Shown piece by piece: positions 25,605-32,063 of a DNA stretch of 64,000 nucleotides. Source of the DNA: Candidatus Sumerlaeaceae bacterium (lineage in GTDB: Bacteria > Sumerlaeota > Sumerlaeia > Sumerlaeales > Sumerlaeaceae); contig JBMFRB010000003.1 in the NCBI GenBank assembly GCA_049968255.1, positions 199,385 through 263,384 of the forward strand, written 5' to 3'. The notes under the pieces are model-generated. The model ran no database searches. It was given only the letters and a program-made list of their open reading frames with translations, and had not been told where the DNA came from. The translations under genes were made by a program, and so were the position numbers. Every line of letters begins with the position of its first letter. Positions within the stretch are counted from its first letter, which is position 1.

Positions 25605-28600
25605 ATGGGCATTTATTCCGAAAAGGTTATTCGCGATCTCAACGAGCAGCTCGATCCGCGGGCTGTGCTCGAACTCATCAATTATCACTCGGACAAGTTG
25701 CAAGAAAGCGGCGAGACGTTACGCGGCTTTTGTCCCATTCATCGCGAAACGGTGTTCCGGACACTCATTATTGATAAGTCCAAGCGCACGTTTCGCTGCA
25801 TGTACAGCTTGTGCAAAGGCGCTGCGGGGGGCACGCTTGTCGAGCTCTACGCATTGGCGCAAGATATCCCGCTCGAAAAAGCGGTCGAGGAACTCGCAGG
25901 CCATTTCCAGATCGAAGTGCGAATGACCGCCGATCCTGAGTTTCTCGAAAAGCAGGCCGAAGTGGCGGAAAACTATCTCGAGCTCGGATTTTACGAAGAC
26001 GCGGAGAAGGTCCTCCGCGAGATTGTCGAAGCAGATTCAAATTACGAACGGGCCCATCGTGGTTTGCTTGAGGTCTACAAGCATCTCGGCAACACCGAAG
26101 CTCTGGGGGAGCATCATGGCATCCTGGCGCAGTTGCTCATCCAACGCGGTGAACGCTTAGCGGCCTATGAGCACGTCAAAGCCTGGGCCGAGTACCAGCC
26201 CGACGCACCCAAAGCGCATTATTTGTTAGCAGAATATCTTCGCGAGCAGGGCGACCTCGAAGCTGCACTCGAGGAATTCATGGCAGCGGCGGACCTCTAC
26301 GCTGCGAAGGAGGATTTTCAAGCGGCCATTGATGCGTACCGCCAAGCGGACTCCTTGCGTCTCGATGTCGTGGATGTCGTGCCCCATGTCCTGCAAATCT
26401 ACGAGCAGATGGGCAAGCCCACCGAGGCCGTGGCGTTTCTCAGCGAACGTGCCGAGGCGTCGCTACTTCACGCGGATTTTGCGCGCAGCGCCCAGCTTCT
26501 GGAACAGGCACTTGAGCTCGCACCTAACGACCCTTCGCTACGCGCGCGGCTTTGCGAGATTGCCATTTTGGCCGACACGGGCGGCGACTGGTTACCACGC
26601 GTTTTCGAGTGGGCGCAGTGGTTTGTCGAGTCCGGCATGCCTGAAAAAGCCGTGCAGGTCTACGAGCGCGTGCTGGGCGCGCAACCCACAAACGAGGAAG
26701 CCGTGGAGCGGCTTCGCGCGCTTTACGCAGCAATGGGAAGGACAGAAGACGCGCTTGGGTTGCGCGTGCGCGCCGCACGCGTGGCATTAGACGCAAAAGA
26801 ATTTGCGACAGCACGCAAGGAACTCCAAGCGATCCTTGAAGAGAAACCAGATCACGCCGCTGCCCTTGAGCTGCTCGCGGAGGTGAACCTAGCGGCTGGT
26901 CACCGCAAGGAAGCTGCGGACTGCCTGGCCAGGCTGGCGCGCGTGTGTGTCGCGAACCGCGATTTTTCTAAAGCGGTTTCGCAGATGGAGCGCGTTCTTA
27001 GCCTGGTGCCGGACGATCCCCGCTTCTTGCTCGATCGCGCGGAAATTCTGGAAAACTGGGCAAGCACAGGCAACGTCCGCGCGCGCCAGCAGGCAGTAGA
27101 GGCATTTGAAGCGCTCGGCGACCGTTATGCGCAGACAGATCCGCAAAAAGCGTGCGACATGTATCGGCGCTCCGAGGCTTGCGCTCCACCATCAGCGCAA
27201 TTACTGCTGAAGCAGGCACGCTGCCAGGCAAAGCTGAGGGCTTTCGATGCGGCGCGCGAATATCTCCAGCGCGCTTGCGACGAACTTGTCGCGGTAGGAC
27301 AGCCAGACGTCGCAGTCGAAGCAGCACGCGAAATCGCGGCAATGGCCCCGCACGATCATGGCCTCCAGCGTTATCTCATCGAGCTGCTTGAAGTGATCGG
27401 CCGCATTCCTGAAGCCGTCGAGGTGGCTATGCTGCAAGCGGACGCGGCCGCTCAACGAGCGGAAAAGGAGCGTGTGTTCGAGTACCTCAATTATGCACTC
27501 GCTCTGGACCCGGATCATATACCCGCCATTGAGGCTCTTGCGCTCCACTATCACGGCACAGGCGATATCGCCAGCTACTGCGACGTCTTACTGCGTCTGG
27601 CGAATGCGAACGAGCAGCGCGGCAATATCACAGGGGCCGTGGCTGCTTTGGAACGGGTGGTGGATGAGCGTCCCGAAGATGTGATGGCGCTGGGACGTCT
27701 GGCCAATCTGCACCTCAACCTTGGAAACGCCGCGAAGTCCCGCGCTTATCGGCTAGAATTGGCACAAATTCACCATCGGCGCGGAGCTCTGGAATCCGAG
27801 CGCGAGATACTGCGGGCGCTGCTGGAGGAGGATCCAGAGGAGGAAAATGTTCTGGCGGCCCTCATCGATTGCGAGTTTGGCCTGGGCAATCGCGAGCAAG
27901 CCTGTGCGCGTGCGGTCGAGCTGGCTCGCTTACAAATGAAGCGCGGTTTTGCAGCTCAGGCGCGTACCACGCTCGAGAAGGCGATCGCGAAAGAGCCCGA
28001 TGATCTCGGCGTGAATCGCCTGCTCTTTGAACTAGTGCGCCAACTCGGCAGCGCGCAGGAAACCGTCGAACGCGGCCTCCACCTTGTCGAGCTACTTCAG
28101 CTTTACGAGCAGTTGGACGACGCAGTCGCTGTTTTCGAGCAAACGACGGAGGCTGATCCAAACAACTTCGAGTTGTTTCGCAAGTATGTCGCGTTTTTGC
28201 GCGAGATTGGGCGCACAGAGGAAACGCTTGAAAAGCTCTTTGCCATCGCGCGGCGGCTGCGTGCAAGCGGCCAATTTGAAGAAGCAGAAAAAGCACTGCT
28301 CGAGATTGAGCAGTCACGTCCGCTGGACATACCCGAGCTCGAAGAAGCTCTCTCGCTCTACGAGCAGTGGGGCAAGCCCGAGCAGTTTGCACAGCGTGCC
28401 ATTGAGTTAGCGCGCACCTATGAAACGAGTGGCCAGGACAAAAAGACGTTGACTCTTCTGCGGCGCGCACTCAAGGTGACGAATGGTCATCCGGAGGTGC
28501 GACGCGAACTTGCGGAAGCTTATGCGCGGCAGGGGCGTCCGGCTGATGCGGTGCGCGAGCTTGTGCAACTGGCCGACGCCTTTGTTGGGGCTGGCAAGCG

Positions 28601-31600: not shown

Positions 31601-32063
31601 CGTCCAGTTCCTTGCGGGCAAGGAACGCGCGCAGGAAGAATTCTTTCACATCTTCAATGCACTCTTCCAAGCAAAAAAACAAATCGTCATCACAAGCGAT
31701 CGGCCGCCGAAGGACATAGCAAGGCTCGAAAACAGGTTACTTTCGCGCTTTGGCGCTGGGGTGATTGTGGACATTGCCCCGCCTGATCTCGAAACGCGCA
31801 TCGCCATTCTCAACCGAGAAATTGAGCGCGGCGAAGTTGATATTCCCGACGCGGTCGTCCAACTCATCGCCGAAACCATTGATACCAATGTGCGCGAGCT
31901 CAAAGGCGCGTTGAACCAAGTCATGGCGATGCACACGATCCAAGGCAAAGAGATCAACACAGCAAACGTTCGGCAGATGTTGGAGTCACTTTACGCGCGT
32001 CCAACTGCCGTGGAGAAGCAGCCTCCGCAAGAATCGGCGAAAGATAAAAAGAAAAAAAGTTAG
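25605..32063 (+). CDS. Giant multidomain protein: N-terminal CHC2 (DnaG-primase-type) zinc finger, long TPR-like repeat array, C-terminal DnaA-type AAA+ ATPase module (no DnaA domain IV)
   Basis: Uninterrupted 2152-aa ORF, RBS-like AGGA 8 nt upstream of the ATG. N-terminus: CPIHRE...[37 protein letters not shown] (primase zinc-binding-domain pattern). Middle: about 1800 aa of Ala/Leu/Glu/Arg-rich helical repeats with TPR-like periodicity. C-terminus: [23 protein letters not shown]...[16 protein letters not shown] (Walker A), [27 protein letters not shown] (Walker B), [26 protein letters not shown] (box VII Arg finger), NVRELKGAL (sensor II). Ends in a K-rich tail with no HTH domain IV. Confidence 0.85.
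   Translation: [2152 protein letters not shown]

Follow-up and report, generated by a model that had tools for sequence, protein, structure and literature searches.

A conserved giant protein of Sumerlaeota with a CHC2 zinc ribbon, a long tetratricopeptide repeat array and a DnaA-type AAA+ module that lacks domain IV

In a 64,000-nucleotide stretch of contig JBMFRB010000003.1 from a Candidatus Sumerlaeaceae bacterium (hereafter the window, meaning the whole stretch analysed), a single open reading frame (ORF) on the forward strand encodes a giant protein of 2,152 amino acids (aa). An initial annotation, made from the letters of the DNA, had described an uninterrupted frame lying co-directionally behind bioB and a DUF486 gene. 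Both points hold: positions 25605-32063 (+) read through 2,152 codons from an ATG start with no internal stop, and the genes upstream in the same direction are uppS, cdsA, bioB and a DUF486/DMT_6 gene, with a radical-SAM gene converging on the ORF from downstream. The window as a whole is ordinary chromosome, with secDF, an EF-G paralog, ndk, mutS, uppS, cdsA, bioB, a class A penicillin-binding protein, mgtE and other genes. The GenBank protein MGC8740795.1 is identical to the window protein and is named 'MAG: tetratricopeptide repeat protein [Candidatus Sumerlaeaceae bacterium]'. Judged from its sequence, it is a real, conserved DnaA-related AAA+ protein lacking the DNA-binding domain, in which a zinc ribbon of the DnaG primase type, an array of tetratricopeptide repeats (TPRs) and a C-terminal DnaA domain III follow one another (Table 1).

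The match of the C-terminal part to DnaA domain III, proposed in the initial annotation, was borne out by profile, structure-database and predicted-fold comparisons. The Pfam model PF00308 (Bac_DnaA) matches aa 1898-2056 with 222.8 bits (E=3.4e-66). In a phmmer search of the PDB, the best matches are the Bacillus subtilis DnaA structures 8bv3/8btg (E~1e-79; 5e-80 for 8bv3), followed by the DnaAs of Thermotoga maritima and Aquifex aeolicus, while Hda is reached at 1.8e-9 only. The AlphaFold model of the C-terminus (predicted local distance difference test score, pLDDT, 82.9) shows an AAA+ base and lid preceded by a linker of low confidence. All of its top 11 Foldseek matches are DnaA, with 8bv3 the best (target-normalised template-modelling score, TM, 0.90; root-mean-square deviation 2.6 Å; 52% identity). 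Identity of the AAA+ module is 52-55% with B. subtilis DnaA and 52-57% with canonical DnaAs from distant phyla; with Hda structures it drops to 17-20%. The protein is the only DnaA homolog found by tblastn within the window.

The domains that flank domain III in DnaA are missing. Neither PF11638 (DnaA_N, domain I) nor PF08299 (Bac_DnaA_C, the helix-turn-helix of domain IV) has a match in the protein, and the NCBIfam model TIGR00362 (DnaA) is covered from profile positions 61 to 340 of 437, which indicates a domain III without domain IV. The ORF stops 17 aa past the AAA+ lid. Similarly, all 52 relatives retrieved from GTDB end no more than 24 aa from the AAA+ match, so the loss of domain IV is a trait of the family and not a truncation; the 28 canonical DnaAs in the same scan run about 100-114 aa further, barring one cut by a contig end and one short ORF. 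Membership in DnaA as defined by TIGR00362 was rejected on these grounds: domains I and IV are absent, coverage is partial, and the score of 343.4 bits falls below the cutoff of 343.9. As a side observation, this near-cutoff score and the DnaA names in circulation ('chromosomal replication initiator protein DnaA' for an identical copy in IMG and 'DnaA, partial' for fragments of the protein at NCBI) could lead to mis-annotation and, in marker-gene analyses, to a second DnaA being called in error.

Functional residues were compared in an alignment of 41 family sequences, the 91 most similar canonical DnaAs and Escherichia coli DnaA, the numbering of the last being checked at 14 known residues. 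Positions K178 and T179 of Walker A, D235 and D236 of Walker B, D269 of sensor I, R281, the arginine finger R285 and R334 of sensor II (E. coli numbering) are invariant or nearly so in the 41 family sequences. The module thereby keeps all residues for ATP binding and hydrolysis and for head-to-tail oligomerisation through the arginine finger. In B. subtilis DnaA, cryogenic electron microscopy of origin opening assigned phosphate contacts to K222/E223, a wedge to I190/I193, guanine capture to R202/E228 and adenine capture to N187 (PMC10721633). The equivalents of K222, E223, I190, I193, R202 and E228 are conserved in 36-40 of the 41 family sequences, and V/I211, K243 and R245 (E. coli numbering) are also kept in the family. 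In the nucleobase-capture pocket for the DnaA-trio (N187, I190, I193, R202, E228), four of five positions are conserved. Most residues for the contacts of the DnaA filament on extended single-stranded DNA (ssDNA) are thus retained. Several family differences are fixed, first at the start of the P-loop (G172 to S/A and G173 to D, E. coli numbering) and further at W288 to A/S/G, L290 to V/I, E337 to K, R342 to Q and K309 to E. The earlier description of a match to DnaA 'nearly motif for motif' therefore stands for the retained motifs, but not for the P-loop start, the lid helix and the adenine-capture Asn, where changes are fixed.

The N-terminal CHC2 assignment, also made in the initial annotation, was likewise upheld. 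In the full-length protein the Pfam model PF01807 reaches 22.1 bits, below its cutoff of 24.9, whereas on the isolated 117-aa N-terminus it scores 28.8 bits (E=1.1e-6), above the same cutoff, and it matches 37 of 41 homologous N-termini. A profile of the family N-termini retrieves the DnaG zinc-binding domains 2au3 (1.4e-6) and 1d0q (2.9e-5) from the PDB. The AlphaFold model of this part (pLDDT 88.5) matches 2au3 and 1d0q only in Foldseek at E<=0.001, with probability 1.0 and TM of 0.71 when normalised by target (1d0q) and 0.63 when normalised by query (both structures). Each of the putative ligands C43, H46, C65 and C70 is conserved in 90% or more of the 41 N-termini, with a second knuckle of C-x4-C in the family as opposed to C-x2-C in DnaG.

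Compared with the DnaG zinc-binding domain (PF01807; 1d0q, 2au3), the N-terminus shares the CHC2 zinc-ribbon fold with its flanking helices, the four ligands and the conserved GG motif after the second knuckle. It differs in being only about 20% identical and in leading straight into TPRs, with neither a TOPRIM/RNA-polymerase domain nor a helicase-binding domain behind it; Toprim and DnaB_bind are absent among the Pfam matches of the protein. Membership in DnaG primase was accordingly rejected, the CHC2 domain being present and the TOPRIM and C-terminal helicase-binding domains not. Giant TPR proteins of 2,400-3,700 aa without AAA+ (P0026-P0050) were also seen to begin with the same ribbon and make up a wider Sumerlaeota superfamily. 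One such paralog without AAA+, AXA36147, is encoded in the closed genome of Ca. Sumerlaea chitinivorans, and the 64-kb window holds no second zinc-ribbon/TPR paralog.

The two termini are joined by a long TPR-like array, as had been claimed. Over about 1,750 aa at least 13 TPR-clan Pfam families match (e.g. TPR_19, E=4.5e-92), and residues 106-1873 match TPR-clan families only. The best TPR matches in NCBIfam are to assembly factors of the PrsT, PilW, LapB, BepA and SgmX type; these are generic and all far below the family cutoffs. Compared with itself, the window protein shows offsets of 386 and 773 aa, and a 1,749-aa member one of 386 aa, which corresponds to a super-repeat unit of about 386 aa present in three copies in the window protein. 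Successive length classes, at about 1,360, 1,750 and 2,150 aa, are each one such unit apart, and the window protein, with its three copies, is the largest and most expanded variant of the family. At the DNA level, no tandem repeat in the ORF matches the super-repeat, the sole array being a trivial one of 21 nucleotides, so the expansion is old. The linker that follows ends in a conserved LQIV-x-EYDF motif.

Table 1. Coordinates of the ORF and of the features of its product in the window.
Feature	Residues (aa)	Window positions	Strand	Basis and remarks
Whole ORF	2,152 plus stop codon	25605..32063	+	ATG start; MGC8740795.1
CHC2 zinc ribbon, DnaG zinc-binding-domain type	1-105	25605..25919	+	Pfam, PDB profile search, AlphaFold and Foldseek
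Putative Zn ligands	C43, H46, C65, C70	25731-25733, 25740-25742, 25797-25799, 25812-25814	+	Alignment
TPR solenoid region	~106-1873	25920..31223	+	TPR-clan Pfam families only
TPR super-repeat, copy 1	~717-1103	27753..28913 (boundaries approximate)	+	Self-similarity
TPR super-repeat, copy 2	~1104-1489	28914..30071 (boundaries approximate)	+	Self-similarity
TPR super-repeat, copy 3	~1490-1873	30072..31223 (boundaries approximate)	+	Self-similarity; abuts linker
Flexible linker, Ala/Pro/Ser-rich	~1874-1893	31224..31283	+	Low pLDDT; variable among relatives
DnaA domain III (AAA+ base and lid)	1894-2135	31284..32009	+	Pfam, PDB phmmer, AlphaFold, Foldseek
Walker A, SDVGLGKT	1935-1942	31407..31430	+	Alignment; K1941 and T1942 invariant; S/A-D replaces canonical GG
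Initiator-specific motif and ssDNA-contact positions		31515..31643	+	Alignment; includes Walker B D1998, D1999
ssDNA equivalents, B. subtilis numbering	A1971=N187 (Asn lost), V1974=I190, I1977=I193, R1986=R202	within 31515..31643	+	Alignment
Further equivalents	K2006=K222, E2007=E223, E2012=E228 (B. subtilis); R2008=R245 (E. coli)	within 31515..31643	+	Alignment
Sensor I TSDR and box VII RLLSRF	2030-2033 and 2044-2049	31692..31751	+	Alignment
Box VII arginines	R2044, R2048	within 31692..31751	+	Alignment; R2044 = E. coli R281; R2048 = arginine finger (E. coli R285, B. subtilis R264)
Sensor II/box VIII	2095-2103	31887..31913	+	Alignment; R2097 invariant; K2100 replaces canonical Glu
Q2105	2105	just downstream of 31887..31913	+	Alignment; replaces canonical Arg
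C-terminal tail ...AKDKKKKS	2136-2152	32010..32060	+	Sequence; Lys-rich, short, variable; no domain IV

The same architecture recurs across Sumerlaeota. A scan of GTDB with one genome per species, using the peptide patterns [SA]DVGLGKTH and N[VI]R[ED]LK[GA]A[LF][NK], returned 52 loci with the TPR-DnaA arrangement (L006-L057) in 52 genomes, of which 50 are labelled Sumerlaeota, Sumerlaeia, Sumerlaeales, Sumerlaeaceae or BRC1 and two 'bacterium' only. In addition, the last 450 aa were searched with phmmer against 1.84 billion representatives (50% identity clusters), and the best 150 were examined. They include at least 53 full-length clusters with zinc ribbon, TPRs and DnaA domain III and 13 that are truncated at the N-terminus; among the 53, 44 measure 1,353-1,395 aa, four about 1,645-1,754 aa and two 2,119-2,150 aa. 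Common to the 52 loci and the 53 clusters, and all present in the window protein, are a CHC2 ribbon, a TPR array, a linker, a DnaA domain III with [SA]DVGLGKTH and N[VI]R[ED]LK[GA]A, and an end at the lid. The initial annotation did not recognise this architecture as a described family. Indeed, we did not find it described in the literature searched in full text, but databases already hold the 53 or more full-length clusters under the generic names 'tetratricopeptide repeat protein', 'DnaA/Hda family protein', 'AAA family ATPase' and 'DnaA'. The gene is native to the Sumerlaeota genome, as had been supposed from its composition: its G+C content (0.58-0.60) lies within the range of the window (0.55-0.61), and orthologs occur in the 52 genomes. 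A mobile-element origin was rejected, an IMG/VR scan having given one chimeric contig and one weak match only.

Set against the 91 most similar canonical DnaAs, the 41 AAA+ domains of the family come out as monophyletic by neighbour-joining and sit on a short stem, which indicates a single origin. Conservation is uneven along the protein. Orthologs share 71-86% identity in the zinc ribbon and 84-92% in the AAA+ module, compared with 44-66% in the TPR region, and the linker and tail are likewise far less conserved than the two terminal modules. The terminal modules are thus under much stronger purifying selection than the scaffold between them. Across the family, AAA+ identity is 53-94% among intact members (the divergent P0041 left out), a range that overlaps with the 48-62% identity of the family module to DnaAs of unrelated phyla. 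One divergent member of 2,119 aa (P0255) was noted in the locus L005 (OW818685.1, 5,996,854 bp, positions 4,602,912-4,629,271), a 6.0-Mb single-record genome; its zinc ribbon is partly degenerate, its P-loop reads 'GDVGLGKTH', and panB-nadC lie upstream.

Set beside DnaA itself (8bv3/8btg, 2z4r, 2hcb/3r8f), the C-terminal module is alike in its AAA+ base and lid, in identity to the B. subtilis protein and in predicted fold, and it keeps Walker A/B, sensors I and II, the arginine finger, R281, the initiator-specific motif and most ssDNA contacts. The protein is unlike DnaA in lacking domains I, II and IV, in the lost adenine-capture Asn, and in the fixed GG to S/A-D, E337K and R342Q changes; further, the module stands behind about 1,870 aa of zinc ribbon and TPRs, and the gene is not at a dnaA-dnaN locus.

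Known DnaA derivatives that act on initiation, namely Hda/HdaA and HdaB, are small, highly diverged and mostly from Proteobacteria. Hda/HdaA resembles the window protein as a DnaA-derived AAA+ without domain IV that has kept the arginine finger, and it offers a precedent for action in trans on DnaA through contact between AAA+ domains. However, Hda is a single domain of about 230-250 aa with 17-20% identity and has neither a TPR array nor a zinc ribbon. Membership in Hda was rejected: TIGR03420 scores 93.3 bits against a cutoff of 194.8, the protein has 2,152 aa, and a regular-expression scan of the first 8 of 23 family members found no conserved clamp-binding motif (QL[SD]LF type).

The loaders DnaC, DnaI and IstB follow a similar logic, with an N-terminal partner-binding module tethered to an initiator-clade AAA+. 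DnaI has an N-terminal zinc-dependent module, and the AAA+ domains of DnaI and DnaC bind ssDNA and can dock on DnaA. The window protein differs from them in being 7-8 times larger, in a zinc module of another fold and in an AAA+ that is DnaA proper. Pfam gives IstB_IS21 32.9 bits as against 222.8 bits for Bac_DnaA, and the NCBIfam models IstB (54 bits, cutoff 200) and DnaI PRK08939 (38.7 bits, cutoff 228) stay far below their cutoffs, so membership in these loaders was rejected as well.

Other fusions of DnaA domain III were seen in metagenomes as a side observation (P0210, P0231, P0261, P0194, P0195, P0200, P0278 and P0273 are non-canonical examples). Two DnaA AAA+ domains occur in 26 of the best 150 representatives. 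The fusions include proteins of 570-700 aa with two Bac_DnaA domains in tandem, of which one carries the label Gemmatimonadota; proteins of 1,876-1,990 aa with MshEN and Bac_DnaA followed by a second Bac_DnaA; and Bac_DnaA with a double zinc ribbon (1,348 aa) or with DUF835 (768 aa), both with no Bac_DnaA_C match at E<=1e-5. They resemble the family in carrying a DnaA AAA+ without domain IV in a non-canonical architecture, and differ in their partner domains and in identity (36-50%), none having zinc ribbon plus TPRs.

Gene order around the family gene varies among the 52 loci. Directly upstream, nadC is found in about 12 of them, sometimes with panB, and also in L001 and L005. Downstream, at a distance of 4-122 bp, a gene for a membrane-anchored SHOCT-like protein of about 200 aa is present in 19/52 loci, and a gene of about 690 codons without a Pfam match comes next in 17/52; the loci with these downstream genes include L027-L036 and L050-L054 (e.g. 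L029:10248-12964). In the clade of the window (L006, L007), the order is bioB, DUF486, family gene and converging radical-SAM gene, with no nadC, panB, SHOCT-like or ~690-aa partners. Near-matches to the DnaA box number 13 in the window, where 5.5 are expected; they are unclustered, and one lies near the gene (25267, inside DUF486). The canonical DnaAs nearest to the C-terminal module belong to Firmicutes, to an Atribacterota-like group (P0068 resembles P0074) and to Eisenbacteria (P0140), and lie in ordinary dnaA-dnaN loci.

DnaC-type loaders and Hda act by docking their own AAA+ onto that of DnaA. We tentatively favour a comparable role for the window protein, as a possible trans-acting modulator or adaptor of replication initiation that joins DnaA filaments. 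The C-terminal module would work as DnaA domain III does, forming an ATP-bound helical oligomer on single-stranded or unwinding DNA, with arginine-finger-linked, ATP-dependent oligomerisation on extended ssDNA, and would co-assemble with, cap or extend the filaments that the DnaA of the cell forms. At the site of the filament, the TPR solenoid would then place a large protein-docking platform, to which the zinc ribbon would add a second, primase-type nucleic-acid-binding domain. Such an effect on initiation could be positive or negative. DnaA without domains I-II still separates strands (PMC10721633). The AAA+ of the family evolves as slowly as DnaA, whereas drift has brought Hda, DnaC and IstB down to about 20% identity; it is therefore likely that the module must stay compatible with the interfaces of DnaA. 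On the other hand, with N187 lost and no DnaA-box-binding domain, the protein should not recognise oriC alone as DnaA does.

Several observations weigh against a role at DnaA filaments. Paralogs with a zinc ribbon and giant TPR array but no AAA+ are many, and because of them the core job of the scaffold may be unrelated to replication. The position of N187 holds A, S, G, T, D or E but never Asn in the family (n=41), whereas it is Asn in 91/91 of the nearest canonical DnaAs. How the module handles nucleotide, or which partner it chooses, could be altered by the S/A-D that replaces GG in the P-loop and by E337K and R342Q in the lid. No dnaA, dnaN, helicase or primase gene is found close to the family gene in any locus examined; its neighbours are cofactor-biosynthesis genes and, in other members, the genes for the small membrane/SHOCT-like and ~690-aa proteins. 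For the candidate roles put forward in the initial annotation, a regulator or scaffold engaging DnaA or primase, neither gene order nor co-occurrence provided evidence. The scan retrieved no member from Ca. Sumerlaea chitinivorans, whose closed genome is not confirmed to be in the scanned collection. Further, no canonical dnaA labelled Sumerlaeota appeared among the top 120 listed homolog matches, in searches that were not phylum-targeted; a homolog search seeded with the Eisenbacteria protein P0140 gave no match labelled Sumerlaeota, and the supplement of an mBio paper on Sumerlaeota has no dnaA or K02313 entry.

A self-contained nucleoprotein scaffold accounts for part of this evidence, and we regard it as somewhat unlikely. 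Here the protein would form DnaA-type homo-oligomers on ssDNA or double-stranded DNA, much like the initiator-clade ATPases IstB, MuB and TnsC and independently of DnaA and initiation; the zinc ribbon would be a second DNA contact and the TPR arms would recruit partners, in a role in the organisation, repair or segregation of the chromosome. The residues for oligomerisation and ssDNA contact are intact with the base-specific Asn lost, replication synteny is lacking, and the paralogs without AAA+ point to a general family of DNA-anchored scaffolds. In addition, length grows by whole super-repeats, as expected of a spacer or platform. A module that interacts only with itself would, however, be free to drift, as those of DnaC, IstB and Hda did, and the one found here has stayed at 52-57% identity to DnaAs of unrelated phyla with a DnaA-like rate, for which co-assembly with DnaA would be the most economical explanation.

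Contact with DNA is dispensed with altogether if the protein is a scaffold for assembling proteins, for instance an envelope, pilus or secretion complex, whose AAA+ would be a nucleotide-gated oligomerisation switch and whose zinc ribbon would mediate protein-protein contact. The SHOCT-like membrane-anchored gene 4-122 bp downstream (19/52) and the ~690-aa gene (17/52) would suit such a role, as would the NCBIfam matches to PrsT, PilW, LapB, BepA and SgmX-type TPRs. Those TPR matches are generic, though, and all far below the family cutoffs; the equivalents of K222, E223, R202, E228, I190 and I193 need not stay fixed in a protein that does not touch DNA, and the zinc ligands and DnaG-type fold are conserved too. 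We therefore judge this explanation improbable.

It is more doubtful still, and in our view very improbable, that the protein is the replication initiator of Sumerlaeota or an obligatory co-initiator, with the zinc ribbon replacing domain IV and the TPR array replacing the hub of domain I. It is the sole DnaA homolog in the 64-kb window, no canonical DnaA labelled Sumerlaeota was among the matches listed, it comes within 0.5 bit of the TIGR00362 cutoff (343.4 versus 343.9 bits) and bears the name DnaA in IMG, and the strand-opening machinery of the AAA+ is intact. Yet the absence of a canonical DnaA is weak evidence, coming from the top 120 matches of searches not aimed at the phylum. N187 is lost, and in 52/52 loci the gene lies away from dnaN and other origin-region genes. 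To our knowledge, nearly all bacteria have a DnaA with domain IV. From the closed genome of Ca. Sumerlaea chitinivorans came a paralog without AAA+ and no family member; if that genome was among those scanned, the family is not universal in the phylum, which would make a role as sole initiator unlikely.

The initial annotation had asked whether the ORF might be an assembly chimera, and an artefact of this kind, or a pseudogene in decay or a gene call that was fused or frameshifted, has a negligible chance and is already refuted, since the identical 2,152-aa protein is present in three independent assemblies (MGC8740795.1, a second NCBI assembly and a 265-kb IMG contig), collinear full-length orthologs of 2,132-2,151 aa with 50-69% identity occur elsewhere and collinear orthologs in 52 genomes, both termini are strongly conserved and the frame has no internal stop, even though one IMG/VR contig does have a chimeric join at the P-loop-coding sequence. 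That contig (L086, IMGVR_UViG_3300007352_000022), labelled viral, carries at its end family-like sequence as far as 'YSDVGLGKT' and then an SNF2-type helicase, and so has the look of a chimera made in assembly.

Unlike the small, diverged Hda, HdaA and HdaB, the family is conserved across a phylum and has a nearly unchanged DnaA core severed from both of its targeting domains and tethered to a primase-type zinc ribbon through up to 1,750 aa of TPR scaffold. If docking on DnaA filaments is true, its members would be initiation regulators or adaptors of a new class, in a phylum that is uncultivated and poorly known. The family would then also amount to a natural experiment on what domain III alone can do. 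The loss of the adenine-capture Asn alongside a retained guanine-capture pair makes a specific and testable prediction about ssDNA specificity.

The remaining observations concern the surroundings of the gene. No Rfam families or tRNAs were found within the 64-kb window, and promoter and terminator scans stayed at chance level. PADLOC models gave nothing significant for the protein (best E=5.9e-4, 17.5 bits, on the generic P-loop region); with housekeeping neighbours and no significant model match, an anti-phage TPR-sensor NTPase (STAND/Avs-like) or another PADLOC system was rejected. The converging radical-SAM gene (32109-33230, -) has a weak viperin-like (pVip) PADLOC match over its radical-SAM core (E=1.5e-13), which is probably generic radical-SAM similarity, and the gene at 33275-35080 (-), of 601 aa, has no Pfam or PADLOC match. 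The cumulative GC skew of the window reaches its maximum at about 33-34 kb, just past the ORF (noted for ~33000-35000), with a mean skew of +0.029 to the left and -0.013 to the right. Forward-strand genes differ between the two sides: to the left almost all genes lie on the + strand, and the right side is mixed. The signal is weak and confounded by this gene orientation; the change in skew may mark a switch in replication direction, for example at a terminus.

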